The notes: generated by a model from the letters alone, not told the origin. A stretch of 64,000 bases of DNA from a virus (IMGVR_UViG_3300033068_001916); one strand, 5' to 3'. Shown: positions 1,884 to 38,338, counted from the stretch's first letter. Made by a program: numbers and translations.

Positions 1884-2112
1884 AAGAAATCTGAAGATGC
1901 CTGAAGGTAAGGTGGCTTCGCAGGTTGCACATGCTGTTAAGAATCTCGGTATTACACCTATAGATTCCATCATAGTTGTTCTTTGTGTTTCTGATAAGAA
2001 ATTCGAAGAGCTTGTTGCGGAGCATCCGAATTGTTATGTTCAAACTGATATGGGTTTAACTTGTGTTGAAAGTGGTACAAGAACTGCTGCAGCATGGATA
2101 GAAGAGGAATAA
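1861..2112 (+). CDS. peptidyl-tRNA hydrolase PTH2-like (short)
   Basis: KMPEGKVASQVAHAV and TDMGLTCVESGTRTAAAW resemble the PTH2 motifs GKGKIAAQCSHA and D.G.T..pG..TvlaiGP. Confidence 0.5.
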   Translation: MKIKAIYKRNLKMPEGKVASQVAHAVKNLGITPIDSIIVVLCVSDKKFEELVAEHPNCYVQTDMGLTCVESGTRTAAAWIEEE

Positions 2113-2558
2113 TGGTAAATAAGGTCAATATAAACAACAGAAAAGCAAAGTTTGATTACGAGTTCATCAGAACTTTAGTAGCAGGTATGCAATTACTTGG
2201 ATCTGAGGTAAAGGCTATCCGTGACGGCAGAGTCTCTTTTGTTGACTCGTACTGTTACTTCAATGGTAAGGAACTTTTTCTAAAGAACCTAAATATAACT
2301 CCAATATCCTCGACATATTCACATGAGCCAAATAGAGAGAGAAGATTGCTACTTAATAAGAGCGAGCTTAGAAAGCTACAGAATGAAATGGATAGAGGAA
2401 TGACAATAGTTCCATTCCGTATTTTTACCAATGAGAAAGGTTTAATCAAATTGGATATTGCTCTTGCCAGAGGTAAAAGAAGCTATGATAAGAAGGAAAA
2501 AATAAAAGAGGCAGACATAAAAAGAGATACAAAAAGGACAATTGCTGGTGATATATAG
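2094..2558 (+). CDS. smpB: SsrA-binding protein SmpB
   Basis: 154 aa. The N-terminal half aligns to E. coli SmpB along its length: KAKFDYEFI with GSEVKAIRDG and DSY; NITPI; EPNRERRLLLNKSELRKL versus DPTRTRKLLLNQRELDSL. Confidence 0.85.
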   Translation: MDRRGIMVNKVNINNRKAKFDYEFIRTLVAGMQLLGSEVKAIRDGRVSFVDSYCYFNGKELFLKNLNITPISSTYSHEPNRERRLLLNKSELRKLQNEMDRGMTIVPFRIFTNEKGLIKLDIALARGKRSYDKKEKIKEADIKRDTKRTIAGDI

Positions 2559-3612
2559 GTATAAAAATATACCCTATATGAGACACGATAAAAGATATTT
2601 GATTAACTACCTAATAGAGAATTATAGCAAAAAAAGTAAATCTGAGATAACCGATGAACTTGGAATTTCTTGGTCATACATTCAAAAAATAGCGTCATTA
2701 AACGGTATAAAAAGAGGATTTTGTGAAAATAAAAACGGTGGTAAATACTCGATATTAACAAAATATGACGACGTAAAAAGTTGTTATTGGTTGGGATTTA
2801 TGTTAGCTGACGGTAATATAAGCAAAAAAAATAATATGATGCTAAATTTGGGAATAAAGGATAAAGATCATATACTCAAAATAGAAAATCATATTGGAAA
2901 AACTAGTGTATATTGCCAAAATGACAATATAGTAAGAGTTGTTTTAAATGACTCTGTGACATTTAAAAAAATAGCATCTGATTTTGACTGGAAACCAAAT
3001 AAAACAAAGAATCCACCAGTCTTATGTGAATCAATGCCTCATGATTCCATATTTTCAATGGCCGTCGGATTTATTGATGGTGATGGGTGCATTGATGAAA
3101 GATATGGTCTTAGTGTTAAATGTGATGGGTCATGGCAGGATATACTTAATTATTTTTATTTGATATTAACTGGTGATCATAAAAAATATGAAATTAACAA
3201 CAATGGATATTCGGTATTTCGTATAAATAGTATGATAAAGTTAAAAGAAATAAAGAAAAAAATTATGGCTCTTGATATTCCAGCGATGGATAGAAAGTGG
3301 AATAAAATAGATATTAATAGAATATACAAATCGGAGAAAGAATCCATCATCTCCGAGATGCTAAATAACGGGGATCCTATGGAATTAATATTGGAAAAAA
3401 CTGGATTCAGTAAAACCTTATATTATTCAGTAGCAAATAAGAATGGTGTAAATATAAGAAAAAATAAAATATCCGATGAACAATATCTATCAATAATAAC
3501 AATGTATAATAGCGGTACAAAGCCATCAGAAATATCAAGATCCCTTATATTAAGTGCATCGACAATACATAGACAAATTAAAAAATACAAGGACACTAAA
3601 AGAAGCATATAA
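2542..3612 (+). mobile_element. free-standing LAGLIDADG homing endonuclease gene (two LAGLIDADG motifs with N- and C-terminal HTH domains)
   Basis: Motifs WLGFMLADGNI and AVGFIDGDGCI. HTH-like segments are ITDELGISWSYIQKIA and PSEISRSLILSASTIHRQI. The ORF overlaps the smpB 3' end by 17 nt. Confidence 0.8.
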
Positions 3613-4734: not shown

Positions 4735-5211
4735 ATGAGCTGGGTAGAAGACATAAAGAAAATAGCTATAGAAACATTTGTGATGGACAAGGAGTCAATT
4801 CACGGTATACATCACTGGGAAGAGGTTTATGAAAATGGCATGATGCTTGCAAATCAACCAGGTGTTGATTCTTTAGTGGTTAAACTCTTTGCATATCTTC
4901 ATGATTGTAAAAGAGAGGATGACCATCAGGATCCGGAACATGGGGACAGAGCAGCTGATTTTGTCGTTTGGCTCAGAAATTCTGGTAAACTATTCTTTCT
5001 AACTGAAACACAATATAAGCAGCTTTGGATGGCTTGTCTTCAACATCATAAGGGTGTTGTTGAAACGGAGGACATCACAATAGGGGCATGTTTCGACGCA
5101 GATAGAATAGAACTTATAAGATGTGGGATAACCCCAAGGGAGGATCTGATGAGCACACCTATGGGGATTAGGATTGCTAAAAAAATGAATGAATTAAAAA
5201 CAGGACATTAA
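4735..5211 (+). CDS. HD-domain phosphohydrolase
   Basis: HGIHHWEEV ... LHDCKRED ... HGDRAADF gives the H..HD...D pattern of HD hydrolases. Confidence 0.5.
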   Translation: MSWVEDIKKIAIETFVMDKESIHGIHHWEEVYENGMMLANQPGVDSLVVKLFAYLHDCKREDDHQDPEHGDRAADFVVWLRNSGKLFFLTETQYKQLWMACLQHHKGVVETEDITIGACFDADRIELIRCGITPREDLMSTPMGIRIAKKMNELKTGH

Positions 5212-5447
5212 TGGCAAAATTATATGATGGTGTGGAAATCGCAGCTAAGAAAGGCAGAAAAACAACAGGCAGCAGAAATGCGGGAAACCGTCTTTTTGAT
5301 TCTTTGGATATGGCTATCGTCAAACATGATGAGGTCATTCACAATGCTCAAATCAAGAGGGGTGAAATAGAGAAGGGCAAGCAACATATGATATACCAAT
5401 GTGGGTGTGGTAGTAGTGGTTGTTGTATTCATATTGAGGTTAAATAA
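5211..5447 (+). CDS. hypothetical protein
   Basis: ORF with ATGA overlap. Confidence 0.4.
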   Translation: MAKLYDGVEIAAKKGRKTTGSRNAGNRLFDSLDMAIVKHDEVIHNAQIKRGEIEKGKQHMIYQCGCGSSGCCIHIEVK

Positions 5448-5510: not shown

Positions 5511-5828
5511 ATGGCAAAGTATTTAGGTGAAGTTGAAGTTAGCATGGATGATCCAAATAATCCATATTCAAAATTCACAACCAAGGACTGGATGTTTGAA
5601 TTTATAGAAAGATACGGATCAATAGACGGTTCACATCACAAGGATTGGGTAATGAACCAATGCACCAAAATCTATCACGGAACACCAGTTATAGTGAAAT
5701 TGGCATCATGGGATAATGGTGAAAGTGAATATAGAATAACGCTTGCTGAGGACTCAGATGATTATAAAAAATACGTCGAGATGACCGAGGAAGCTGGGTA
5801 CTCTATAGAGGAAGGGATTGCACCATAA
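5511..5828 (+). CDS. hypothetical protein
   Basis: ORF downstream of the conserved promoter. Confidence 0.55.
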   Translation: MAKYLGEVEVSMDDPNNPYSKFTTKDWMFEFIERYGSIDGSHHKDWVMNQCTKIYHGTPVIVKLASWDNGESEYRITLAEDSDDYKKYVEMTEEAGYSIEEGIAP

Positions 5829-5865
5829 TATTTCGTCACCACTAATTAAAATTAATAAATTAATT

Positions 5866-5896
5866 TTTTTTATATCGGAATAATTTTATACATTTG
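5866..5896 (+). promoter_or_regulatory. conserved phage promoter
   Basis: tttttttatatcggaa ... TACATTTG at 5889-5896. Confidence 0.5.
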
Positions 5897-5916
5897 CGAT
5901 ATAAAAATAAAAGACC

Positions 5917-6501
5917 ATGGATTTGACAAACTACGTAGACTGGTGCATAGCACAACACGATAACACCAACCACATGTATGACAAATATTTGCCATATTCA
6001 TTTCATCTAAGAATGGTTGATAGAGCAGCACAGCAATTTGAACATCTCCTGGATGACACAAAAGACATGCAAACCGGAAAATCTAGGGAGATTCTAGACG
6101 GAAGCAGATTGGGATTCGTTTCTCTTAGAATGGCTTGCAGAAAGGCTGGATGGGGTCACGATACAATAGAGGATACAAGAACATCCTATAATGATGCAGT
6201 TAATCATCTAGGAAAGGATGCAGCTGATATCGTTTATGCTGTTACTAACGAGAAAGGTAAAAATCGTGCAGAAAGAGCCAATGACAAATACTATGCTGGG
6301 ATAGTAGCAACGCCTGGAGCAGTTTTTGTTAAACTTTGTGACAGAATAGCTAATGTTCAATATGGTAAAATGACAGGTAGCGGTATGTATGATAAGTACA
6401 AAAAGGAGAACCCAAATTTCATTACTAAACTTGGTGGTGATGATAAGAACCACGAGTTAGCTCCAATGTTCGAATATTTAATCGATCTATTTAAAGATTA
6501 A
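5917..6501 (+). CDS. SpoT/RelA-type HD-domain (p)ppGpp hydrolase-like (Mesh1-like small alarmone hydrolase)
   Basis: GWGHDTIEDTRTSYNDAVNHLGKDAADIVYAVTNEKGKNRAER matches the RelA/SpoT HD block LLHDvvEDT...FG..va.lV.gVTK. Confidence 0.6.
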   Translation: MDLTNYVDWCIAQHDNTNHMYDKYLPYSFHLRMVDRAAQQFEHLLDDTKDMQTGKSREILDGSRLGFVSLRMACRKAGWGHDTIEDTRTSYNDAVNHLGKDAADIVYAVTNEKGKNRAERANDKYYAGIVATPGAVFVKLCDRIANVQYGKMTGSGMYDKYKKENPNFITKLGGDDKNHELAPMFEYLIDLFKD

Positions 6502-6503
6502 TC

Positions 6504-7397
6504 ATGATAAACAATTCAAATAAATTAGAGATCTTCGAGAATTTTATAGCTTTACCTAAAAAAGTAAAAGATTCACCTAGCGCTATCAATATTTCACCAG
6601 TAACAGTTGGCGGAGCTAGCTTTCTTAATGCGATGGCTAGAGATGCTGATAATCACGATAACTTCCTTAGAGATTCTATAGAGGTCCGTGCTGTTGACTA
6701 TCTACATTACATCCATATGCACGAGCACACATTTAAAAGTTGGCTCAAGCTGAAAGCTGCAGAAATTCTATTTCCAAACAAGAAGGTTAAAAAAATAAGA
6801 TATCAATCAGTAGATGAATTCTTTAATGATGTTAAGAATTCAATCAAAACGCTGGAGGTAAATCCAGGTTCTGTTGAGTTTTATACTAATGCAATAGAAA
6901 CTGCAAAGGAAAATGGACAGATAGCATTTTTAGAAATACTACGAGATAAGAAGGACGGGGTTCTTGCCGAAGCTAAGCTTCTAGAGGTTGGTGAGATTAA
7001 ATATGTTACCGAGGAAGATGTTGTTAAGTTTTATAAAAAAGCAAATCTTGGAAACAAGATGCTAAAGCTCACCTGGATGAAAAACTACGCTAGAATGATA
7101 CCTGAAGAGGTCATAGCGGAAAAGAAAAAGTATGATGCATCAGAATTATTTGATAATTATGTTATTTTACATTTCGATAAGCATGACAACTCAACCAAGA
7201 TGACAAAAGCGGAGGTAGAGAAAGCTAAGGATCCAATACTATTTGGAGTTCTCAAGGGGACTAGAAATTTATACTTTATAGGTGACTGGATTGATGAATA
7301 TTGCGATCTAACACTGGACAAATTTCTGTCTACACTCGAGATGGAGGAGGCAAGAAAGCTATCCGAAGATTCCATGAAAGAGGGATTAAAAATGTAA
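6504..7397 (+). CDS. hypothetical protein
   Basis: 297-aa ORF. Confidence 0.55.
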   Translation: MINNSNKLEIFENFIALPKKVKDSPSAINISPVTVGGASFLNAMARDADNHDNFLRDSIEVRAVDYLHYIHMHEHTFKSWLKLKAAEILFPNKKVKKIRYQSVDEFFNDVKNSIKTLEVNPGSVEFYTNAIETAKENGQIAFLEILRDKKDGVLAEAKLLEVGEIKYVTEEDVVKFYKKANLGNKMLKLTWMKNYARMIPEEVIAEKKKYDASELFDNYVILHFDKHDNSTKMTKAEVEKAKDPILFGVLKGTRNLYFIGDWIDEYCDLTLDKFLSTLEMEEARKLSEDSMKEGLKM

Positions 7398-7720: not shown

Positions 7721-7779
7721 TGGGAGGTAGCTCAGTTGGTTAGAGCTCATTTTCGAAGGTTCGAGTCCTTCCCTCCCAA
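7721..7779 (+). ncRNA. 59-nt tRNA-like minihelix that lacks an anticodon arm
   Basis: TGGGAGG-TA-GCTC-AGTTGGTTA-GAGC-tcattttc-GAAGG-TTCGAGT-CCTTC-CCTCCCA-A. The 7-bp acceptor, canonical D arm and T arm are perfect, but only 8 nt lie between the D and T arms. Confidence 0.6.
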
Positions 7780-7980
7780 CTAAGCCAGTTTTTATGATGC
7801 ATCTCTATCGACAGAGAACCTTGTTTTAGATTTAATAAATAAGGTTAATGTGGTCGGGTAGTTTAAAAGTTTCCTAACCTTAAGGAAAAGTAAGGATGGT
7901 TTTGCAGAAGACAGTTTCCTCGCCTAGTGGAAAAGTCAGTATAAGAAGGGATACCGGTCGGCTTTAACCGGTTCCCAACA

Positions 7981-8104
7981 GGGGGAATAGGCCAGCGGTG
8001 TGGCGCGTCTCTAGCTTACATCATAGATATAATCTATGACGTCTTTCCACTAAGACGAAGTTTAGATGATTCAAGTGGCACGGGTTCGATTCCCGTTTCC
8101 CCCA
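7981..8104 (+). ncRNA. tRNA-like element with a ~90-nt structured insert
   Basis: Acceptor GGGGGAA/TTCCCCC, T arm ACGGG-TTCGATT-CCCGT, D-arm-like GGCC..GGCG. The insert contains the hairpins ATAGAT-ATAA-ATCTAT and CGTCTT-TCCACTA-AAGACG. Confidence 0.5.
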
Positions 8105-8351
8105 CTAACCGCGTCACTGTAAGATGCAGTGATAACTGGACACGAAATAAGGTGGTTCCGCGGATCACCAATAAAATCGTTCGAGGCAGAGTCCAAGTCC
8201 AGGGTTAGGATAAAGCTATTCGCTATTGAGCATACCATCCGATGGGTCAGCGAATTAACCATTGGAGACGCGTGGGGTATACTGACGTTGGTCTAACATA
8301 AATCCCCAACTGTAGATACGTACTAAGGGCTGTAAGGAAATTCTACAAAAA

Positions 8352-8504
8352 GGTTTGGTGGCAGAGTGGCTTAATGCGTCGGTCTCGTCCAATATGATCG
8401 GTTAAGAGTGAACTCCTTAATCTTTTGCTCATGGACCAAAACGGATGGCCCGTTTCGAGAAGCAAATATCGAAGGGCCCGCAGGTTCGAATCCTGCCCAA
8501 ACCA
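8352..8504 (+). ncRNA. tRNA-like element (153 nt) with a long insert
   Basis: Acceptor GGTTTGG/CCAAACC, T arm GCAGG-TTCGAAT-CCTGC, discriminator A. Confidence 0.5.
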
Positions 8505-8591
8505 CAAAACAAGTAAAACGCAAACGCACGGGCCCTAGATGCATAAGGTGAAGCGCACCCCGTATACTGGATGACCTCTGTTTTTTTTAAC

Positions 8592-8712
8592 GGCCAAATG
8601 GCGAAATTGGAAGACGCAGTGGCAAGTGAGTAATAGAGTAAGCGTAAAATAGCACTGCTCCCCATTTCGGGTCACAACCGCTAGATTACAGGTTCGATCC
8701 CTGTTTTGATCG
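8592..8712 (+). ncRNA. tRNA-like element (121 nt) with a class-II D arm and an insert
   Basis: GGCCAAA-TG-GCG-AAATTGGAAGA-CGC ... ACAGG-TTCGATC-CCTGT-TTTGATC. One acceptor mismatch. Confidence 0.45.
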
Positions 8713-9201: not shown

Positions 9202-9740
9202 TGGATAATCAAAACCAAACAATAGAGGAAAGATTCCTAGATTCTCTAAGAAAGGGAAGCGATAAAGAACCCAAACTTTTTATCTATTGGAATCTTTTCA
9301 GTATTCTGCATCTTGGAGATCCTTATTTTCTGGGTCATATAGTTGACGAATATAAACAATTTCCGGAAGACAGCTGGTGGTTTATTAATTTCCATAAAGC
9401 AATAAGACAATGTGACTATTTTAGTGACTCCTTATGCTTTTCAGAATCGACCATAACTATGGAGGAATCTAAGAGGATGAACACCATTCTTGGTTTAAGA
9501 AGAAGAATCAGAAGGGAGATGAAACTCGAGGATTCTGAGATTGACGATCCAGAATATCTGGAACTTGGTGAGGAATTATCCAAACTTAGAAGAAAATATC
9601 AGGTTCATAGAAGAACATCAATTTCCGGACATCTTGACTCTATACTCTACCAATGTATCAGTAATGGTAACGATGAGCTTTTTAACTTCATGAGAAAATT
9701 TCTTTCTGAAAATATACAATTAGAACCAAAGGAATTATAG
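9201..9740 (+). CDS. hypothetical protein
   Basis: 179-aa ORF that ends with a TAG stop. Confidence 0.55.
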   Translation: MDNQNQTIEERFLDSLRKGSDKEPKLFIYWNLFSILHLGDPYFLGHIVDEYKQFPEDSWWFINFHKAIRQCDYFSDSLCFSESTITMEESKRMNTILGLRRRIRREMKLEDSEIDDPEYLELGEELSKLRRKYQVHRRTSISGHLDSILYQCISNGNDELFNFMRKFLSENIQLEPKEL

Positions 9741-9741
9741 A

Positions 9742-10485
9742 ATGAGCCGTATACTTTGTCCATGCTGTTTATCACCTCTTACTGTCACACACAGAGACAG
9801 ATACCAGGATATGTCTGAGCATGTATCAAATCCAAATGGAATACCATCACTGAAGGATGGATATCAATGCCTTAATTTTGATTGGTGCTTCGCATCGATT
9901 TACAAATGCACATGGCTGGAGGACGGAGATTTTTTTTGTGGCACCCCTCCAGAAGGCATGAATTATGGAGACGTCCGTGATACGTTGGAAAGACACTGGA
10001 AATTTCCAACTAAAACTCTGGCAGTTAATTCCTGGAATTTTTTCTATAAACTTGGACAAATTGAAACCAAGAAAAGAATTAAAACTTTCAATATCGGGAA
10101 ATATACATTTAGATTCACCCCGAGGGATAAGGGATATAACTACCCACCCAATGAGCAATATATGCCAAGAAAGTTTTCCTATAAGATGGAGATATTAAAA
10201 GAGACATCAGACGGATGTCATACTCTTATTATTAGTGACTATAGCATGATTAAACATTCCCTTTCGGATTTCAAATCCAACTATAGTGATGCTTTTAATG
10301 AAAAAAGAAGGTACTCTGATTGGCCAATTGACAAATGCATGGAGTACATCAGATGTTCCACTATCTATGGATATAAGGACAGAAGGAGATATAGATTGAT
10401 CTCGATGGTTCTTATAAATATATTATTTCCAGTAAAAGTTAACAGAATTAAAAATCTTGCAAAGGCAAAGAAAAGATTTTTTTAA
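9742..10485 (+). CDS. hypothetical Cys-rich protein
   Basis: 247-aa ORF. Confidence 0.55.
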   Translation: MSRILCPCCLSPLTVTHRDRYQDMSEHVSNPNGIPSLKDGYQCLNFDWCFASIYKCTWLEDGDFFCGTPPEGMNYGDVRDTLERHWKFPTKTLAVNSWNFFYKLGQIETKKRIKTFNIGKYTFRFTPRDKGYNYPPNEQYMPRKFSYKMEILKETSDGCHTLIISDYSMIKHSLSDFKSNYSDAFNEKRRYSDWPIDKCMEYIRCSTIYGYKDRRRYRLISMVLINILFPVKVNRIKNLAKAKKRFF

Positions 10486-11485: not shown

Positions 11486-11901
11486 TGGAGGAACATTGTG
11501 TACCTGTTGACATAGCAGTTCAACTTAAAAATAGGGGATTCAACGATCCGTGTTTTATGATATACAATGAGAATGGTATATTGGAGGAATGTATAAATGT
11601 TAATACACACAAACTTCACCCAATGGACTATAACAACTTTGATGGATTACCTGAATGTATATCCGCTCCGTTATATCCACAGGTTATTAATTGGCTTGAA
11701 AAAAGATGCAGCATTCTAATAGAAACATTCAGAGGCGACGATGGGTATCTGGATCTGCAGGTTAGAAGATGGGAAGATTATGGATCAGAAGTAGATCCAC
11801 ACGGAGACTATGGATATATGCAAAAATATAACTCATACTCAACAAGGGATATGAGAGAATGCCTAACTGAGGGAATAAGGGAGGCACTAAAACTTTTATA
11901 A
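11476..11901 (+). CDS. paralog family A protein
   Basis: APLYPQVINWLEKRCSILI; N-terminal HCVPVDIAVQLKNRGFNDPCF is shared with family members. Confidence 0.5.
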   Translation: MHLMEEHCVPVDIAVQLKNRGFNDPCFMIYNENGILEECINVNTHKLHPMDYNNFDGLPECISAPLYPQVINWLEKRCSILIETFRGDDGYLDLQVRRWEDYGSEVDPHGDYGYMQKYNSYSTRDMRECLTEGIREALKLL

Positions 11902-12251
11902 TGAGAAGACTTTTTAAATTTTATAGGGATGAGACAGGTTGGTTCGTGGATTTGCCTGAGTGGGAAGGAACCAAAGCGGATCTTCAGATGGTATCAGGGG
12001 CGGACACTTTCTTAGATATACTATCTCAAGGTGACACGACGGTTTATGTTACCCTGTCAGATGAGGATTTTGAAGGTGCAAATTTCATGGAGTTTCTTTA
12101 TCTGGGTAGACTTGAAAATTGGGAGCTTGGTGAAGGTGCATGGTATAGAATGGAAAAATATATGGATATTCGATATGATATTGATATGTGGCTTTGTGAC
12201 GTTACGAAATTTGTATTTGGTGGATTTCCAGCAACAATCTATTTTAAATAA
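11901..12251 (+). CDS. hypothetical protein
   Basis: ORF with ATGA overlap. Confidence 0.5.
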   Translation: MRRLFKFYRDETGWFVDLPEWEGTKADLQMVSGADTFLDILSQGDTTVYVTLSDEDFEGANFMEFLYLGRLENWELGEGAWYRMEKYMDIRYDIDMWLCDVTKFVFGGFPATIYFK

Positions 12252-12670
12252 TGAAGGGGAGAGCAATATCATTCTTGGCTTATAATAAATTTACATTCGG
12301 AGATCAGATAGTTTCACAATTTGTTCTTTTTGAGTGTAAATGGCTATTCTCCATTATCTTCTTCTATTTCCATAAAAGTAACGGGTCTCAGGATAGGTTT
12401 CACACACATGCTTTCAATGCTATTTCGTTGAAACTATTTGGCCAATATGATGAGTACATCCTGATCGATGAGGAGAGCGGGGAATATACTGTTAGAAAGA
12501 GGAAAAATATCATTCAATATTTTCCTAGGGATTCATACCACAAAATAGGAAATGGTACTGGATGCATGACCATATTATTCTCCGGACCATGGGAAAAAAC
12601 ATGGAAGGAGTATATTAACGGAACCGTAGTATATTATAATTGGAATAGACGTGTCAGTAAAGAAATATAA
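12251..12670 (+). CDS. hypothetical protein
   Basis: ORF. Confidence 0.45.
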   Translation: MKGRAISFLAYNKFTFGDQIVSQFVLFECKWLFSIIFFYFHKSNGSQDRFHTHAFNAISLKLFGQYDEYILIDEESGEYTVRKRKNIIQYFPRDSYHKIGNGTGCMTILFSGPWEKTWKEYINGTVVYYNWNRRVSKEI

Positions 12671-13097
12671 GAGACCAAGAAGGTACATATGGGGGAGAAG
12701 GAAAAAAGATAGGGTTAAGAGTTATTGGTACTTCAATCAGAGCGATTTAAACGAGCTTTTTAAAAATACCAATATTTCCACTGTCATCTCAACTTACGTT
12801 CCGCTAAGGATGCTAAAATCGGGCCATTATGTGGGTAGATGTCCATTATGCAGAACACTAACTCATAATGATTCACATTTACACGTAAATGACCAAAAAA
12901 GAAGATTCAAATGCTTCGAATGCGGTTTCGGAGGAACTTCCCCGGTTGGGTTTCTAATGGCATATCATGACATAAGTTTTGATAGCGCTGTATCACACAT
13001 AAATAAAAAATACCACGGGAATAAATTACAATTAAGAACAGAAGGCATTGTGGTTAGCAAAAGGAGTGCAAATATAGGTGAAGATCTTCCATTTTAG
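12651..13097 (+). CDS. DnaG-primase-type CHC2 zinc-finger domain protein
   Basis: GRCPLCRTLTHNDSHLHVNDQKRRFKCFECGFGGTSPVGFLMAYHDISFDSAV matches the CPFH.E.TPSF...y.CFGCg.gGd.i.F primase zinc-ribbon. Confidence 0.5.
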   Translation: MSVKKYKRPRRYIWGRRKKDRVKSYWYFNQSDLNELFKNTNISTVISTYVPLRMLKSGHYVGRCPLCRTLTHNDSHLHVNDQKRRFKCFECGFGGTSPVGFLMAYHDISFDSAVSHINKKYHGNKLQLRTEGIVVSKRSANIGEDLPF

Positions 13098-13553: not shown

Positions 13554-14045
13554 ATGAAGGTAATATTTCTTGATATCGATGGGGTACTGAATGTTTATTC
13601 ACATGACCATGACGAATTTGGAAGCCAATTCCATAGTCACTTCGTTGACAATCTTAAAAGGATCATAGACGAAACCGAAGCCAAAATTGTTATATCATCA
13701 ACTTGGAGATATGCAGGATTGGAAAGGATGAAGAAGATGTGGGAGAAAAGAGGTCTTCCGGGGGATGTTATAGACGTAACTCCCGATTGCACATACCTCT
13801 TCAATGAGGGGTTATTGGAATTAACCACTAGAATTGAGAGAGGATATGAAATTGAATACTGGCTGGATGAAAATCCAGGGGTTCAGAAATATGTTATTCT
13901 TGATGACAATGACGATTTCTTACCCTACCAGAGAGGTAATTTTGTAAGAACGTCAAATAATATCAATCATCCAGATTGTGTTGATATAGGATATGGATTA
14001 ACGAACGAGTGTACTAATAAAGCAATAAGAATATTAAATGGATAA
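13554..14045 (+). CDS. HAD-superfamily phosphatase (possible polynucleotide 3'-phosphatase)
   Basis: N-terminal VIFLDIDGVLN carries the DxDG(T/V) HAD motif I. Confidence 0.5.
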   Translation: MKVIFLDIDGVLNVYSHDHDEFGSQFHSHFVDNLKRIIDETEAKIVISSTWRYAGLERMKKMWEKRGLPGDVIDVTPDCTYLFNEGLLELTTRIERGYEIEYWLDENPGVQKYVILDDNDDFLPYQRGNFVRTSNNINHPDCVDIGYGLTNECTNKAIRILNG

Positions 14046-17639: not shown

Positions 17640-18476
17640 ATGAAAAACTTTAGTCTTGGCGATCGTATGAAGGAATTCTACGAAGACCGTTTTAGATACT
17701 ATGTTCCACGCAGAACATACACATTAATCAGAATTGATGGAAAAGCTTTCCACACTTACACAAGGGGTTTGGAATCTCCGTTCGACGCAGGGTTAATCGT
17801 GGATATGAATGAAACCGCAGCTTACCTTTGTAAAAATATACAGGGAGCAAAATTTGGATACGTTCAATCCGACGAGATCAGTATATTGATCACGGATTTC
17901 GAGGAAAGAGACACACAGATGTGGTTCGATGGGAATTTACAAAAGATGGCTTCCGTTGCAGCTTCTATGGCGACCTCTAAATTCAACGAATTGAGAGTTG
18001 ACAGATACATCAGGGAAAAGTTTAATAGTGGGATTGAAACCATAACACCTTTGTGGATAGAAAATCTGAAAAGAGTTAAAAAAGCAGAGTTTGATGCGAG
18101 GGTATTTCAGATTCCACAGAAGAGCGAGGTTGAGAACTATTTTATATTCAGACAACAAGACGGAACTAGAAATTCGGTTCAATCAGTTGCTCAGAGTTTA
18201 TATTCACAGAGTGAATTAAACGGAAAGAAAGAAAAGGATATGCAGGAGATGATATTCCAGAAGGGAATTAATTGGAATGACTATCACTTCAGAGAGAAAA
18301 GAGGTGGAATTATCGCTAAAGTACCAACAATGGTTGAAGGTAGAGATGGTCAGGTTGAAAGACTTAAGTGGCAAATGATACCAACACCTATATTCACTCA
18401 GGAGAGGGAATTTATGGATCAGATGATTCCAGACTTCGTGATTAAAACGAAACACCAAGATGAAGTTGAAATATAA
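17640..18476 (+). CDS. thg1: tRNA-His guanylyltransferase Thg1-like protein (3'-5' polymerase that repairs tRNA 5' ends)
   Basis: RIDGKAFHTYTRGLESPFDAGLIVDMNETA ... FGYVQSDEISILITDF ... ASVAASMATSKF matches Thg1/TLP conserved blocks. Confidence 0.75.
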   Translation: MKNFSLGDRMKEFYEDRFRYYVPRRTYTLIRIDGKAFHTYTRGLESPFDAGLIVDMNETAAYLCKNIQGAKFGYVQSDEISILITDFEERDTQMWFDGNLQKMASVAASMATSKFNELRVDRYIREKFNSGIETITPLWIENLKRVKKAEFDARVFQIPQKSEVENYFIFRQQDGTRNSVQSVAQSLYSQSELNGKKEKDMQEMIFQKGINWNDYHFREKRGGIIAKVPTMVEGRDGQVERLKWQMIPTPIFTQEREFMDQMIPDFVIKTKHQDEVEI

Positions 18477-21336: not shown

Positions 21337-22242
21337 ATGATAATAAATCTTTCTGAACCGTGCAGCTACGGTATAAAATTTAAAGTCTCTAAATTTCCTG
21401 ACGGACAACAATCCATCACCATATTAGAGGGCGAAGTTCTCAAACATGAAATGTTTGAGAAAATGGAGCCAGTGGTAATAAAGTCAAGGATAACATCCTT
21501 CCTAGATCTTGAGCTAGTTATTTGTGCAAACAAAGCTCTTAGAGAGCTTGGAGTTAAAAAAACTTCCCTAGAGATATCATATCTATTGGGGGCAAGATCT
21601 GATAGAAAATTTGAAACAGGTAGCGTTAATTACATTAAAGAAGTACTTGCTCCTATTATCAATTCACAGAAATTCACCAGGGTAACAATACTTGATCCTC
21701 ATTCCGATGTGACAGAAGCTTGTATCAAGAAGTTCAAAAAATCAACACAAATCACTAGTGGACTGATAACATTTGTTCTTAGAGATTATTTCAATAACGG
21801 AACCATCGATTATTCAGGAATGCGTTTAATTTCTCCTGATGCAGGGGCTCTCAAAAAAGTTTATGATGTTGCCGAGTCTATCGGATACAGAGAAGAAATA
21901 GTTATAGCTTCCAAACACAGGGACGTTAAGACTGGAAAAATAACACATACTGATGTTCCAGTAAACGTGGATGATCTAGATATAGATTTCTTTATTCTAG
22001 ATGATATAATAGATGGAGGACGCACATTCATCGAGATTGCTAAAGCTCTAAGGGAAAAAGGAGCGACTGGTAAGATTTTCCTTGTCGCAACGCACGGAAT
22101 TTTTTCAGCTGGTTTAAAGCCATTAAATGAGAACTTCGATGGGATCTACACAACGAATAGCTATGTTGATATCAGCGATCCAGAATTCTCACTGAGAAAC
22201 GATAACGAGCTTCATAAACTTAAACAATTAAAAGTAATATAA
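21337..22242 (+). CDS. prs: ribose-phosphate pyrophosphokinase (PRPP synthetase)-like; may instead be an ADPR-PP synthetase of the NARP1 type
   Basis: PRPP-binding loop FFILDDIIDGGRTFIEIAKALREKGA versus vLVDDmIDTGGTl; N-terminal KFPDGQQSITILEGEV versus rFsDGEi.v.i.esvRG. Length is 301 aa. Confidence 0.65.
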   Translation: MIINLSEPCSYGIKFKVSKFPDGQQSITILEGEVLKHEMFEKMEPVVIKSRITSFLDLELVICANKALRELGVKKTSLEISYLLGARSDRKFETGSVNYIKEVLAPIINSQKFTRVTILDPHSDVTEACIKKFKKSTQITSGLITFVLRDYFNNGTIDYSGMRLISPDAGALKKVYDVAESIGYREEIVIASKHRDVKTGKITHTDVPVNVDDLDIDFFILDDIIDGGRTFIEIAKALREKGATGKIFLVATHGIFSAGLKPLNENFDGIYTTNSYVDISDPEFSLRNDNELHKLKQLKVI

Positions 22243-23963: not shown

Positions 23964-25040
23964 ATGGAAAAAAATAAACAGTTTTTAAAAGATTACTTAA
24001 ATGCATTTTCACCAGTTGGAAATGAAATCGAAGGCCAAAAGGTATGGGTTGACTATGTTAAGCCAATCGTTAATGAAATGAAAGTTGACGCATATGGAAC
24101 AGCATATGGTTTAATTAAAGGTTCGAATAGTGATAAAAAAGTGGTTCTGGAAGCACACTGTGACGAGATCTCATGGATTGTTACTGAAATTGAATCGAAC
24201 GGTATGGTGAGGGTTAAAACCAACGGAGGATCAGACAATATGATTGCACCATCGATGACAGTTATGGTTCATACACACGCAGGTAAAAAAGTACCTGGAG
24301 TTTTTGGATGGCCTGCTATTCACGTAAGAGAAAAAAGAGTTGAGATGGGTCCGGAAGTTCATGAACTTTGGATTGATCTTGGAGTTGATAGCTCAAAGAA
24401 AGTTTCAAAACTTGGAATTGAGGTAGGAAATTGTGTTACATTCGATCAAAAATTCTTTGAAATGGGCAAATACTACGTCGGTAGATCACTGGATAATAAG
24501 ATTGGTGGTTATATCATTGCAGAGGTTGCTAGGGAACTTAGAGAAGAAGGGACAATTCTCCCATTCGATCTTTATGTTGTTAATGCAATCCAGGAGGAAG
24601 TTGGTTTATTTGGTGCTAGATTAATTGCACAAACAATCAAGCCGGACATCGCATTGGTTCACGACGTTACGCACAACACAAACTCTCCTAAGATGAACAA
24701 GGCAAAATCTGGTGACATCAAGGGTGGTTCGGGTCCAGTTATCGAGTACTCGTCTCAGAATCACAAGGATCTAATTAATATAGTTAGAGATGTGGCTAAG
24801 GAGAAAGAGATACCATTGCAACTATCTGTTGGTTCTTATGGAAATGATACAGTGTCTTTCTTCTTAGAAAACGTACCTACTGTGATCGTAGCTAGTCCGT
24901 TAAAGTATATGCATACTACAATAGAGATGGTACATAAAGATGACGTATCGGCTGCAATACGGGTTTTTAAAGAGACGTTAAAAAAGTTGACCACTGGTAC
25001 CATAGTTACCATCAACGATCAAACACACAAATACGTATAA
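23964..25040 (+). CDS. M42-family metallo-aminopeptidase-like protein
   Basis: AHCDEISWIV ... SLDNKIGG resemble M42 (FrvX/YsdC) blocks; length is 358 aa. Confidence 0.45.
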   Translation: MEKNKQFLKDYLNAFSPVGNEIEGQKVWVDYVKPIVNEMKVDAYGTAYGLIKGSNSDKKVVLEAHCDEISWIVTEIESNGMVRVKTNGGSDNMIAPSMTVMVHTHAGKKVPGVFGWPAIHVREKRVEMGPEVHELWIDLGVDSSKKVSKLGIEVGNCVTFDQKFFEMGKYYVGRSLDNKIGGYIIAEVARELREEGTILPFDLYVVNAIQEEVGLFGARLIAQTIKPDIALVHDVTHNTNSPKMNKAKSGDIKGGSGPVIEYSSQNHKDLINIVRDVAKEKEIPLQLSVGSYGNDTVSFFLENVPTVIVASPLKYMHTTIEMVHKDDVSAAIRVFKETLKKLTTGTIVTINDQTHKYV

Positions 25041-31827: not shown

Positions 31828-33498
31828 ATGGAAAAATTAAACAAGACTTTTAAAATCAATCCCCTTTACGAATCGGATGGTTATAAGGTTGGACACAAAG
31901 CAATGTTAGCTGAAAATACATCGGTTGAATATTGGACTTGGATCCCTAGAAGCATAAAATATATGCACCCATCGATTGATGGCATTATGTCAGCCGGTGA
32001 ACAATTGGTATGGAGATACATTCACAGTAGTTTCCAGGAGTTATTCTTTGACCAACCAGTTGAAATGGCAGAAAAATTTGGTAGAGATATGTCCAAGTAT
32101 TTAATGATGGATTATGATGCTAATCACTTCTCTGAATTACATAAACTTGGTTATCTTCCGGTTAGAATCAAGGCTATACCAGAAGGGACATTCACAAAAC
32201 CAAACATTCCACACATGACAGGGATCAACACTGTTGATGGCTATGCTTGGCTTGGGCTTTATTTGGAAACGTTGGTATCTAAATTGGCTTGGCAATTACC
32301 TACAGCTGCTACTATTGCTCACAGATTCAAACAGAATGCTGTTGAGTGGGTTACCAAAACAGATCCAGAAAATCTTTGGTTAGCTGATTTTATGTGTCAC
32401 GATTTCCACAGCAGAGGTGGAAATCCATTCACATCAATCGCAGTTGGACTAGGACACGCAATGAGTAACTCAGGTAGTGACACATTAAACGTTATCCCAG
32501 CATCGAGATACTACTATGATTTCGACGAAAACGAAGTTCCAGTTTATAGCGTTAATGCTTCTGAACATAGTGTGACATGTACAGGTATTTTCTTCTACGA
32601 GAAAAAATTAAGAGGCGGTTTATTAAACCATGAAATTCTAAAATACTACCAATCTGACGCTACATCTGAAGGATCGGTTGACGCTCCAGATTACTTGGCA
32701 ATTGCGGAATTGCTTAATCTTCGTGATTGGCTTAAAAAATTCCCTAAAGGTATTCTTTCAGTGGTTTCGGACACAATGGATTTATGGAAAGTTATCACAC
32801 ATATTCTACCAAGGCTTAAAGAAGAAATTCTTGCTAGAGATGGTAAATTGGTAATTCGTCCTGATTCAGGAGATCCAGTAGATATTATCTGTGGTAAATA
32901 TCCAACATTTGGAGATGGATTTACATGCGAGGATAAAGGTGTTATTGAATTACTTTGGGATCTTTTCGGAGGCGAAGAAACTTCAACAGGGTACAAAAGA
33001 TTAGATTCACACATCGGAGCAATCTATGGGGATTCGATCAATCTAGAAAGACAAATTGCTATTTATACAAGATTAGCAGATAAAGGTTTTGCATCTACCA
33101 ATATCGTGGTTGGAGTTGGATCTTACACATATGTTATGTTAACAAGAGACTCTGCTGGATACGCAGCTAAAGGAGCTTGGTTCTCAACTAAAGAATTTGC
33201 AGGTGTTGATCCAGACGGTCAAACTGATTATACTATCACTGAGTACAATATCTATAAAGATCCCGTAACCGATAATGGTACTAAAAAATCATTAAAAGGT
33301 TTCTGCCAGGTATTCAATAACAGACCAGATGCTTTACCTTATGAGATTAAGTATGACGGGAAAGATCAATTGGAGGTAAATACCGAATGTACTAAAGAAC
33401 AGGAAGATGGTGGATTATTACAGCTAATCTATGAGGATGGCAAATTCCACAATCAGGCGAGTCTAACTGAGATTAGAGAACGTTTGAAAGTTCAATAA
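31828..33498 (+). CDS. nadV: nicotinamide phosphoribosyltransferase (NAMPT/NadV family; could be a NARP1 Namat-type enzyme)
   Basis: DGYKVGH versus DSYKVTH; HDFHSRGGNPFTS..SGSDTL versus HDFGYRG....KGTDTV; LVIRPDSGDP is the classic PRTase block. Length is 556 aa. Confidence 0.8.
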   Translation: MEKLNKTFKINPLYESDGYKVGHKAMLAENTSVEYWTWIPRSIKYMHPSIDGIMSAGEQLVWRYIHSSFQELFFDQPVEMAEKFGRDMSKYLMMDYDANHFSELHKLGYLPVRIKAIPEGTFTKPNIPHMTGINTVDGYAWLGLYLETLVSKLAWQLPTAATIAHRFKQNAVEWVTKTDPENLWLADFMCHDFHSRGGNPFTSIAVGLGHAMSNSGSDTLNVIPASRYYYDFDENEVPVYSVNASEHSVTCTGIFFYEKKLRGGLLNHEILKYYQSDATSEGSVDAPDYLAIAELLNLRDWLKKFPKGILSVVSDTMDLWKVITHILPRLKEEILARDGKLVIRPDSGDPVDIICGKYPTFGDGFTCEDKGVIELLWDLFGGEETSTGYKRLDSHIGAIYGDSINLERQIAIYTRLADKGFASTNIVVGVGSYTYVMLTRDSAGYAAKGAWFSTKEFAGVDPDGQTDYTITEYNIYKDPVTDNGTKKSLKGFCQVFNNRPDALPYEIKYDGKDQLEVNTECTKEQEDGGLLQLIYEDGKFHNQASLTEIRERLKVQ

Positions 33499-36418: not shown

Positions 36419-38338
36419 ATGAAGGAACAAATTGCACATTTATTAGTTTATGCTTGGTGGATCATTCCAATTTTAGCAATACTATTTTACAAATTTACTC
36501 TCCGAATGTTTTTCGGGATGGTGATTATACCAGAGGATAAAATTGGTCTAGTTACCAAAAAATTCGTACTTTTCGGGTCAAACAAAACACTTCCGGACGG
36601 TAAGATCATTGCTCTTAATGGGGAACCTGGATTTCAAGCAGACACATTAGCACCAGGTTTATATTGGGGTTACTGGGCTTGGCAATACACGATTGACCAG
36701 TCACCTCTAGTAGTTATCGGAAAGGGAAAAATTGGTTTAATTACAGCTAAGGACGGTGCTCAATTACCAACAGGTTCCATTCTTGCCAGACACGTCGATA
36801 GCGATAACTATCAATCAGCCAGAGATTTCTTAGCAAATGGTGGACAACGAGGTAAGCAAGTAGGGTATCTTAATAACGGTGTATATCGTATAAATAGGCA
36901 TTTATTTGAAATCTATGATGCTGATATCACTTATATTGAAGATGGAATGGTTGGTGTAGTAACAGCATTAGATGGTACGCCACTTACTTTAGGCTCAATT
37001 GCAGGATCTGTTGTTGATGGACACAATAACTTCCAAGACTTTGATAAATTCTTAGAGAATGGCGGGCAAAGGGGTCTTCAGGTTCAGGTTATCCAAGCAG
37101 GTTCATATTCAATCAATCCATGGGCTATAGAGATAGAAAAACAAGAAATGACACAGATCCCAATTGGACACGTAGGTGTTGTTATTTCTTATGTTGGTGA
37201 CGAAGGTGAGGATACAACAGGAGAAACATTTAAGCACGGTAACATCGTTAAAAAAGGACAAAAAGGAGTTTGTATAACACCATTGGATCCGGGTAAATAT
37301 GCGATTAATCCATACACACAAAAAATCGAGATAGTCCCAACTACAAATTTAGTTCTTAACTGGGCGAATGCAAGATCGGAGTCACATAATTTAGATAAGA
37401 ATTTAAGTACCATTACTGTTAGATCTAAGGATGGATTCCCATTCAATCTTGACGTATCTCAGATCATACACATTCCTTCGACAGAGGCACCTAAGGTTAT
37501 TGCCAGATTTGGATCAATGTCAAATCTAGTATCACAGGTATTGGAGCCAACCATCGGCAACTATTTCCGTAACTCTGCTCAGGATTCTGATGTTATTGCG
37601 TTCTTATCAACAAGACAGCAACGTCAAAATGCAGCTAAAGAAAACATCGCTAAAGTTCTTGACGAGTACAACGTACATGCAGTAGATACATTAATTGGTG
37701 ACATCGTTCCACCAGAATCATTAATGAAAACTCTAACCGATCGTAAGATTGCTCAGGAGGAAGAGGTAACGTTCGAGACCCAGAAAAAAGCACAGGATCA
37801 GCGTAAAACACTAGAATCAGCTAAAGCTTTAGCTAATATGCAAGGTGAAATGGTAAGTGCACAACAATCGGTTGAGATCTCACAAAGAAAAGCGGAAGCT
37901 GAGGTTAAGAGATCTGAAGGGGAAGCAAAAGCAATCGAGATTAAAGCTGGAGCAGATGCGAAAGCTAAAGAGTTGATGGCAAAAGCTGATGCAACACAGA
38001 TCAAATTAACCGGGGAAGCTGAAGCGTCTAAGATTGAAGCAATTGGTAAGGCAACAGCAGAAGCTTACGAGAAACAAGTTAAAGCGATGGGTGCTGATAA
38101 CTTTGGACAATTAAAAGTTGTTGAGTCTATCGGTGTTAATAAGATCAAAATCATTCCTGATGTTCTTATCAGCGGAGATAATGGATCTGGTGGACCTATC
38201 TCAGGATTGCTTGGAATGGAGTTATTAAATCAGGTTAATGCTAAGAAAGCAGAAGCAGCAGCTAATGCAATCAGCGAAGGACCAGATTTTACGAACACCC
38301 AAGAAAAATCGGAAGGACCTAGAAAAGGTAATAAGTAA
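36419..38338 (+). CDS. flotillin/SPFH (band-7, YqiK-like) membrane protein
   Basis: N-terminal TM segment. C-terminal Ala/Glu/Lys-rich repeats (AEAEVKRSEGEAKAIEIKAGADAKAKELMAKADA...) are typical of the flotillin tail. Length is 639 aa. Confidence 0.6.
   Translation: MKEQIAHLLVYAWWIIPILAILFYKFTLRMFFGMVIIPEDKIGLVTKKFVLFGSNKTLPDGKIIALNGEPGFQADTLAPGLYWGYWAWQYTIDQSPLVVIGKGKIGLITAKDGAQLPTGSILARHVDSDNYQSARDFLANGGQRGKQVGYLNNGVYRINRHLFEIYDADITYIEDGMVGVVTALDGTPLTLGSIAGSVVDGHNNFQDFDKFLENGGQRGLQVQVIQAGSYSINPWAIEIEKQEMTQIPIGHVGVVISYVGDEGEDTTGETFKHGNIVKKGQKGVCITPLDPGKYAINPYTQKIEIVPTTNLVLNWANARSESHNLDKNLSTITVRSKDGFPFNLDVSQIIHIPSTEAPKVIARFGSMSNLVSQVLEPTIGNYFRNSAQDSDVIAFLSTRQQRQNAAKENIAKVLDEYNVHAVDTLIGDIVPPESLMKTLTDRKIAQEEEVTFETQKKAQDQRKTLESAKALANMQGEMVSAQQSVEISQRKAEAEVKRSEGEAKAIEIKAGADAKAKELMAKADATQIKLTGEAEASKIEAIGKATAEAYEKQVKAMGADNFGQLKVVESIGVNKIKIIPDVLISGDNGSGGPISGLLGMELLNQVNAKKAEAAANAISEGPDFTNTQEKSEGPRKGNK

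Follow-up and report, generated by a model that had tools for sequence, protein, structure and literature searches.

A divergent small alarmone hydrolase-type protein placed among RNA-repair and NAD-rescue genes in a putative jumbo phage

The DNA analysed here (the window) was a 64,000-nt stretch from the virus IMGVR_UViG_3300033068_001916, and the feature under study was an ATG-initiated open reading frame (ORF) at 5917..6501 (+), called by the ORF finder and encoding a 194-aa single-domain protein of the small alarmone hydrolase (SAH) type within the RelA/SpoT homolog (RSH) hydrolase superfamily. A sequence-only reading of this DNA had taken an HDTIEDT...AVT block as the signature of a SpoT/Mesh1-like hydrolase of (p)ppGpp and (p)ppApp. 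The block was indeed present (GHDTIEDT at aa 80–87 and AVTNEKG at aa 108–114), accompanied by LPYSFH (aa 25–30) and KLCDRIANV (aa 138–146), and the ORF was real, having 2,580 homologs at E ≤ 1e-3 (best 96% identity) in a set of 5.8 billion proteins. The product contained both PYxxH and KL(A/C)DRxxN motifs, the metal-binding tetrad H...HD...D (predicted ligands H30, H81, D82, and D142), and the predicted catalytic pair E85–D86 (HDxxED motif) directly after HD. Among 74 diverse family members (39–94% identity), H30, H81, D82, D142, N146, K139, R117, G114, Y21, and Y27 were invariant, and E85, D86, R120, R143, H14, N18, and P26 were conserved in no fewer than 90%. Aligned with Mesh1 and with the Pseudomonas aeruginosa SAH (PaSAH), these residues corresponded to the metal His/His-Asp/Asp set, the Glu-Asp pair, and KLxDRxxN. 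Because the metal-binding and catalytic residues were invariant or nearly so, the enzyme is very probably active. The HD fold covered all 194 aa, leaving the protein without synthetase, TGS, or ACT domains, and the sub-clade of the window carried an insertion of some 25 residues (around aa 45–70), peculiar to its lineage, between H30 and H81. A further conserved pattern, H14...N18-x-x-Y21, stood where Mesh1 has 'rrk' and PaSAH 'rnqt', in a stretch in which the alignment was insecure. Both the insertion and this pattern set the lineage apart as divergent.

Sequence, profile, and structure searches all led to RSH hydrolase domains, which bore out the proposed SpoT/Mesh1-like placement: (i) phmmer against all Protein Data Bank (PDB) sequences gave 13 matches, every one an RSH hydrolase domain, namely human MESH1/HDDC3 (3.4e-6) and PaSAH (6.2e-6), with Drosophila Mesh1 and Rel/SpoT catalytic domains completing the list; (ii) a profile of the 74 members gave 22 PDB matches, again all RSH hydrolase domains, the best being Drosophila Mesh1 (2.9e-14) and PaSAH (3e-14), nearly full length; and (iii) an AlphaFold2 model computed from the family alignment (predicted local distance difference test [pLDDT] 96.3, predicted template modelling score [pTM] 0.92) retrieved SAHs (PaSAH and RelH), Mesh1, the (p)ppApp hydrolase Aph1, Rel, SpoT, and RelA as its top 44 Foldseek matches in PDB, with template modelling (TM) scores of 0.59–0.74 to SAHs and Mesh1. 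The dNTPase and phosphodiesterase clades, which the sequence-only reading had named as competing placements, did not appear: no dNTPase, HD-GYP, PgpH, or other HD clade was found among the phmmer, profile, or fold matches, nor was the HD domain of the CCA-adding enzyme (Cca) among the PDB profile matches (E ≤ 0.01) or the fold matches. By an exhaustive HMMER scan, the family comprised 2,628 clusters (50% identity), of which 1,079 reached E ≤ 1e-10. Existing resources labelled it loosely: the protein matched PHROG 990 ('metal-dependent phosphohydrolase') and, locally, NCBIfam spoT_relA (6.7e-6, far below the full-length cut-off), and automatic JGI annotation of close homologs read '(p)ppGpp synthase/HD superfamily hydrolase'. 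Though divergent, the 5917..6501 product is an intact RSH-superfamily hydrolase of SpoT/Mesh1 SAH type. Since phage SAHs neutralising toxic alarmone synthetases have already been published, the concept of phage SAHs is established and the present protein is a new, divergent member of that class. In the published classification, which names paSpo, pbcSpo, and pbcSpo2 as SAH subfamilies, flavobacterial SAHs are placed in pbcSpo2 or paSpo.

Megablast against cultured phages found no near-identical DNA, the window being known from metagenomes only. SAH proteins of 93–95% identity were located on two viral contigs from IMG/VR (430,120 and 434,509 bp) with conserved gene order, and the window was collinear gene by gene with one of these two contigs of about 430 kb (L001). 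Genes in the window were closely spaced, almost all of them on the same strand; its G+C content was about 35%, and its proteins gave weak matches to phage head and virion protein families. Because of the collinear relative, the dense one-strand genes, and the virion-type matches, it was treated as part of an uncultured jumbo phage of about 430 kb. In total, 203 IMG/VR contigs carried the SAH family, which was frequent among uncultured jumbo phages. When 185,579 species genomes were scanned, 276 cellular loci emerged at 37–47% identity, nearly all of them from Bacteroidota (Kordia, Maribacter, Polaribacter, Chitinophagaceae, Salinivirgaceae, and Prevotella), plus Nannocystis. Chromosomal Bacteroidota SAHs being the nearest cellular relatives, the host may belong to Bacteroidota and the SAH gene may be host-derived. 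The 'cellular' matches of top identity (56–60%) were found on contigs attributed to Methanobacterium, Saccharibacteria, and Saprospirales metagenome-assembled genomes (MAGs), namely L173 (PLXT01000115.1), L171 and L216 (Saccharibacteria MAGs), and L172, one such protein being named 'HD domain-containing protein [Methanobacterium sp.]'. L172, L173, and L216 carried phage-island genes (NAMPT-like, Adps-like, HAD_SAK, RNA ligase, cREC, and PolyA_pol), a sign that jumbo-phage contigs may have been wrongly binned into MAGs; L171 (1.9 kb) was too short to show SAH neighbours.

Upstream of the SAH gene lay an 88-bp AT-rich leader with no obvious Shine-Dalgarno sequence, and a scan around 5917..6501 found no promoter-like or terminator-like matches beyond chance. 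In L001, whose SAH was 94% identical, a ferritin-family gene (9329–9901) was immediately upstream of the SAH gene; its place was taken in the window by the 88-bp spacer (5829–5916). Downstream, a 297-aa ORF at 6504..7397 (+) began 2 nt past the SAH stop codon and matched PHROG 10081 (labelled 'transposase') at 2.8e-21, a Pfam search giving no match. To count recurrent neighbours, 87 SAH loci were clustered into 51 lineage groups at 90% SAH identity and the recurrent neighbour clusters were annotated; the 6504..7397 ORF accompanied the SAH gene in the window's own lineage only (1 of the 51 groups).

The same held for a second HD protein at 4735..5211 (+), 158 aa in length, which the sequence-only reading had described as generic and as a neighbour of the SAH-type gene. 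Its generic character was confirmed by profile and fold, both of which indicated a YedJ/2pq7/YpgQ-type HD phosphohydrolase: the family profile matched only YedJ-type entries in PDB (2pq7 at 2.3e-8, 3djb, Escherichia coli YedJ at 6.7e-6, and Bacillus subtilis YpgQ), and the model (pLDDT 95.3) superposed best on 2pq7 (Foldseek TM 0.74). Pfam HD matched the single sequence at 0.0039 (17.9 bits, below the 22-bit cut-off) and HDIG at 2e-4. The family was small (79 proteins), and H23, H27, H56, D57, H69, H104, D121, and D123 were invariant in 43 homologs, in an H...HD...H...D pattern. An hhalign comparison of the SAH family with the 4735..5211 family gave E 0.31; judged from these alignments, the second protein is outside the RSH clade and has only the HD motif in common with the SAH family. 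The adjacency of the two genes held loosely, two small ORFs (5211–5447 and 5511–5828) lying between them. The pairing was found in 1 of the 51 groups, restricted to one lineage, and therefore carries no functional weight and appears incidental; a conserved two-HD module was ruled out by this linkage and by the lack of relatedness beyond the HD motif.

In the wider neighbourhood, genes of RNA repair and of NAD metabolism recurred. The most frequent neighbour of all was an SPFH/Band_7 protein (19 of the 51 groups), followed by a short CCA-adding-type nucleotidyltransferase of about 245 aa with a PolyA_pol head (15), the predicted 'cyclic-phosphate processing' domain cREC_REC (14), a ribose-phosphate-pyrophosphokinase-like (Prs/Adps-like) gene (14), the 'Swiss Army Knife' RNA-repair phosphatase HAD_SAK_2 (13), a NAMPT-like (Namat-like) gene (13), an Rnl-type RNA ligase (11), SmpB (6), and Thg1 (5). 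In 33 of the 51 groups, a CCA-adding-type, RNA ligase, cREC, HAD-SAK, or SmpB gene lay within 10 kb of the SAH gene. The CCA-type gene directly adjoined the SAH gene in about seven groups, in either order and often with a 2–20-bp gap, and the Prs/Adps-like gene was 4–12 bp downstream of the SAH gene in three. The CCA-type proteins displayed only the PolyA_pol head in Pfam and so had no HD domain. Two fusions with intact HD motifs were identified among 20 long members scanned: SAH plus cREC_REC (P0223) and NUDIX plus SAH (P0240). Nudix fusions are known also in ordinary RSH proteins. The arrangements were shuffled rather than fixed across SAH loci, and the neighbour counts were not independent because related phages inherit gene order. 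The Bacteroidota chromosomal homologs had none of these phage-island neighbours.

The window itself carried a comparable set of genes, all on the plus strand: (i) the trans-translation factor SmpB at 2094..2558 (Pfam SmpB 1.1e-46; synteny with L001); (ii) a HAD_SAK_2-type phosphatase at 13554..14045 (1.3e-58 to the hidden Markov model [HMM] of its neighbour cluster, which corresponded to PF18143 at 1.9e-22); (iii) a Thg1-type tRNA-His guanylyltransferase (3'-5' polymerase) at 17640..18476 (Pfam Thg1 1.1e-25); (iv) a Prs/Adps-like gene at 21337..22242 (neighbour-cluster HMM 4e-112, the cluster matching phrog_619 at 4.1e-49); and (v) a NAMPT/Namat-like phosphoribosyltransferase gene at 31828..33498 (Pfam NAPRTase 6.4e-22; neighbour-cluster HMM 9.7e-216). 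By synteny, a CCA-type gene lay just upstream of the window start. The genes under (iv) and (v) are candidate components of NARP1, the published phage NAD+ reconstitution pathway made up of Adps and Namat, and together these pyrophosphokinase-like and NAMPT-like neighbours resemble NARP1. They were about 9.6 kb apart in the window and one to three genes apart in several related phages; in several related phages the Adps-like gene directly followed the SAH gene. The phosphatase published as associated with NARP1 is a Macro-domain protein and not an HD protein, and a connection with it was rejected. The window also encoded a 639-aa SPFH/Band_7 protein (36419–38338) and an M42-family aminopeptidase (23964–25040). 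It is a fair conclusion that the SAH gene resides in a variable accessory island for RNA repair and counter-defence, and the new element is its placement among RNA-repair and NAD-rescue genes. For the 5917..6501 protein, family membership, fold, intact active site, viral setting, and gene context are all direct observations.

Directly downstream of the SAH gene pair, at 7721–8712 (+), were four tRNA-like genes, all of them abnormal; the region 53040–53170 was noted along with them. The first (7721–7779, 47 bits) had intact acceptor, D, and T arms with 4 nt in place of the anticodon arm, and the other three (7981–8104, 8352–8504, and 8592–8712) contained insertions of 40, 81, and 55 nt, respectively, in the anticodon-loop region, too short for group I introns. 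They matched the Rfam tRNA model, and ARAGORN called none of the four; the related 430-kb contig L001 had an equivalent ORF-free gap (11491–12713). These may be interrupted tRNAs needing splicing, relatable to the RNA ligase, cREC, HAD, CCA, and Thg1 genes. Two further local peculiarities were recorded. A 356-aa ORF at 2542–3612, with weak LAGLIDADG and C-terminal helix-turn-helix matches, overlapped the end of SmpB and looks like a homing-endonuclease insertion because it was missing from the otherwise collinear L001. The segment 60000–64000 had a G+C content of 0.45–0.47 versus about 0.35 elsewhere in the window, and its long ORFs overlapped across strands (60173–61591 on the minus strand versus 60370–60999 and 61000–62241 on the plus strand); its single PHROGs match was phrog_19387 (5e-8) for 60370–60999, and Pfam gave none for 61000–62241, the sole ORF scanned. 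The segment may be recently acquired or represent a compositionally distinct gene.

For activity, substrate, and role during infection, we argue from precedent and context. With moderate confidence we favour an active metal-dependent SAH that would act on (p)ppGpp/(p)ppApp, and probably on tRNA modified by toxic small alarmone synthetases (toxSAS), so as to relieve arrest during infection. In the mechanism envisaged, a water molecule activated by E85–D86 would attack at the metal centre of H30, H81, D82, and D142, and the enzyme would remove the pyrophosphate (or phosphate) carried in ester linkage on the 3'-hydroxyl of a purine ribose, as in all tested SAHs. Its likely targets would be products of the RSH-synthetase type, namely free (p)ppGpp and (p)ppApp, with the pyrophosphorylated 3'-CCA end of tRNA as a further likely target by comparison with MESH1 and ATfaRel. 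The phage would gain by lifting the arrest of growth and translation that the stringent response or toxSAS/CapRel-type defence brings about. A counter-defence role of this kind is plausible from the precedent of other phage SAHs, and the island context supports a role in host–phage conflict and keeps a tRNA-end substrate plausible while not identifying the substrate.

Several results weigh against the favoured function. Assignment by HMM came out divided: Pfam HD_4 (PF13328) and HD gave no match to the single 5917..6501 sequence at E < 1, while the family profile retrieved RSH hydrolases only; among the 74 relatives, HD_4 matched 26 at E ≤ 0.01 (best 1e-7) and missed 48. The TM scores of the AlphaFold2 model to solved SAHs were only about 0.65–0.73. 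The HD_4 misses and these modest scores mark the subfamily as divergent, possibly with a shifted specificity. In Mesh1 and Rel, a basic motif (Arg-Lys) upstream of PYxxH serves in base stacking and phosphate binding, and in the insecure alignment of this stretch the N18/Y21 pattern stood in the region of the basic residues of Mesh1 (rrk). No alarmone synthetase or toxSAS gene was seen beside the SAH gene in phage or bacterial loci, a check that covered the precomputed Pfam annotations and the ten most recurrent phage clusters, with bacterial clusters taken by inspection and not every neighbour scanned; with no adjacent toxin, no cognate toxin points to the substrate. A toxSAS type IV antitoxin module (e.g., ATfaRel) was not supported, a RelA_SpoT synthetase not being found among the neighbours checked, and no toxin-antitoxin setting was visible in cellular genomes when recurrent neighbours at bacterial SAH loci were inspected. 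Viewed from the other side, the gene linkage was also thin: a SAH gene lay within 10 kb of the CCA-type gene in only 6 of 50 lineage groups (12%) of that enzyme, which weakened the candidate of a tight SAH plus CCA-enzyme operon.

The neighbourhood lends itself to a different account, in which the protein would not be an alarmone hydrolase in vivo and would serve as a phosphoesterase of a phage RNA-repair and NAD/ADP-ribose network; we consider this unlikely. It draws on the recurrence of PolyA_pol-head, cREC_REC, HAD_SAK_2, RNA ligase, Adps-like, and NAMPT-like neighbours and on the cREC_REC and NUDIX fusions with intact HD motifs. Bacterial CCA-adding enzymes, e.g., E. coli Cca, carry an HD domain. 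The phage CCA-type proteins of about 245 aa do not. In the RNA version, the SAH might clean RNA ends bearing a 3'-phosphate, 2',3'-cyclic phosphate, or 3'-pyrophosphate for the CCA-adding-type enzyme and RNA ligase, standing in functionally for that domain; Kurata et al. explicitly consider that RSH hydrolases might act as Pnk-like RNA 3'-phosphatases. In its NAD version it might dephosphorylate NADP(H) or phosphorylated ADP-ribose to feed the NARP1-like genes, the former with a parallel in the NADPH phosphatase activity of Mesh1. A complex of MESH1 with 3'-phosphoadenosine 5'-phosphosulfate (PAPS) has also been solved. Yet the linkage was not reciprocal from the CCA-enzyme side, gene order was partly inherited so that the counts were not independent, the chromosomal Bacteroidota homologs were without these neighbours, the published NARP1-associated phosphatase was of Macro-domain type, and the fusions were rare, Nudix ones occurring in ordinary RSH proteins as well. 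It seems rather improbable that a jumbo-phage RSH-type HD hydrolase has been recruited for processing RNA ends or ADP-ribose derivatives in place of free alarmones. Such a recruited hydrolase would restore tRNA 3' ends together with the CCA-type enzyme, RNA ligase, cREC, and HAD-SAK, by removing toxSAS-added pyrophosphate or nuclease-left phosphates, or alternatively would dephosphorylate NAD-derived nucleotides and so provision the NARP1-like pathway.

Two other proposals meet the same search results. The sequence-only reading had also raised the degradation of cyclic oligonucleotide immune signals, such as those of cyclic-oligonucleotide-based antiphage signalling systems (CBASS) or type III CRISPR; some HD enzymes (HD-GYP and PgpH) are indeed cyclic-nucleotide phosphodiesterases and jumbo phages carry such genes, but neither HD protein drew support for it, since sequence, profile, and fold searches with the SAH-like protein brought up no HD-GYP, PgpH, or other phosphodiesterase, and the model of the second HD protein matched the c-di-AMP phosphodiesterase PgpH at TM 0.41–0.48 only, far behind the 0.74 of its YedJ-type match, which makes this role highly improbable. 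Remodelling of nucleotide pools by a dNTP triphosphohydrolase or generic nucleotidase is barely credible: the HD motif is present and phages often remodel such pools, but matches of SAMHD1/Dgt/YfbR type were found at no level and the RSH-hydrolase-specific HDxxED and DRxxN motifs were conserved.

Phage SAHs form an established but thinly studied class of counter-defence proteins, of which two phage representatives have been tested, both from enterobacterial phages. The lineage described here was abundant in uncultured jumbo phages and Bacteroidota and mostly missed by Pfam HD_4, so that surveys based on HD_4 probably under-count phage SAHs. Which substrate it prefers (free alarmones, pyrophosphorylated tRNA, or other phosphorylated ribose) matters for how large phages shield translation from toxSAS/CapRel-type immunity. 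Were the protein a plain (p)ppGpp/(p)ppApp hydrolase, the finding would be a routine annotation; the RNA-end account, if true, would make it a RelA/SpoT superfamily member devoted to RNA repair.

Among characterised proteins, PaSAH (PDB 6yvc, 6z3n, and 6z3o) was the best structural match of the window protein (TM 0.64–0.74), and the two shared a single domain of about 175–205 aa with an all-alpha HD fold; PaSAH also shared the LPYxxHL, HDxxED, and KLCDRIxN motifs with the family. In contrast, identity was only about 21–24%, the insertion of the window's sub-clade was absent from PaSAH, and PaSAH is chromosomal and proteobacterial, whereas the window's family occurred in jumbo phages and Bacteroidota. 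Mesh1/HDDC3 (PDB 3nr1, 3nqw, and 5vxa) was the best direct match and the best profile match and displayed the same catalytic motifs, but it is eukaryotic, about 19% identical to the window protein, and has rrk where the family has N18/Y21. MESH1 acts as a hydrolase on (p)ppGpp and NADPH and also strips pyrophosphate from tRNA; according to Kurata et al., MESH1 and ATfaRel remove the toxSAS-added pyrophosphate from the tRNA 3'-CCA end, restoring aminoacylation. For the second HD protein, the YedJ/2pq7/YpgQ-type proteins shared the H...HD...H...D motif along with profile and fold similarity, but the bacterial YedJ/YpgQ-type proteins are about 210–230 aa, longer than the 158 aa of the 4735..5211 product.

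Jimmy et al. (2020) detected SAHs across numerous phages and prophages. In their experiments, two stand-alone proteins, PaSpo of Salmonella phage SSU5 and PbcSpo of Salmonella phage PVP-SE1, neutralised five of five toxSAS toxins tested, and the authors proposed that phage SAHs bypass alarmone-based abortive infection; SSU5 PaSpo is also routinely co-expressed to tame CapRel. Like the window SAH, PaSpo and PbcSpo are phage-encoded and stand-alone with no adjacent toxin. A tblastn search with the window protein did not detect SSU5 or PVP-SE1 at E ≤ 1e-3, and the window SAH therefore represents a different, more divergent lineage; SSU5 and PVP-SE1 are mid-sized enterobacterial phages, whereas the phage of the window is about 430 kb.

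The jumbo-phage counter-nucleotide enzymes catalogued by Iyer et al. (2021) include an 'HD-alarmone PDease', with BBI90576.1 as the cited example. Identity of the SAH family with this enzyme was ruled out, BBI90576.1 having no significant similarity to the family (hhalign E 0.25). BBI90576.1 is PTm1_ORF-184, 325 aa (L090 31805–32782), and in its only alignment to the SAH family, a non-significant one, it had H-P at the position of the HD motif; the recognisable SAH of phage PTm1 is a different ORF, BBI90623.1. PaSAH-like genes were present in 136 cultured phage records, and the closest cultured-phage homologs of the window SAH were the 'phosphohydrolase' proteins of the Tenacibaculum jumbo phages PTm1, PTm5, and pT24 (BBI90623.1 and BBI90929.1), at 28–38% identity. 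Their genes, annotated as phosphohydrolase only, lie among DNA-metabolism and structural genes and not in an RNA-repair island. These proteins were also the best viral fold matches of the window SAH (TM 0.73–0.83), and the host of their phages belongs to Bacteroidota, in agreement with the cellular relatives of the window SAH.

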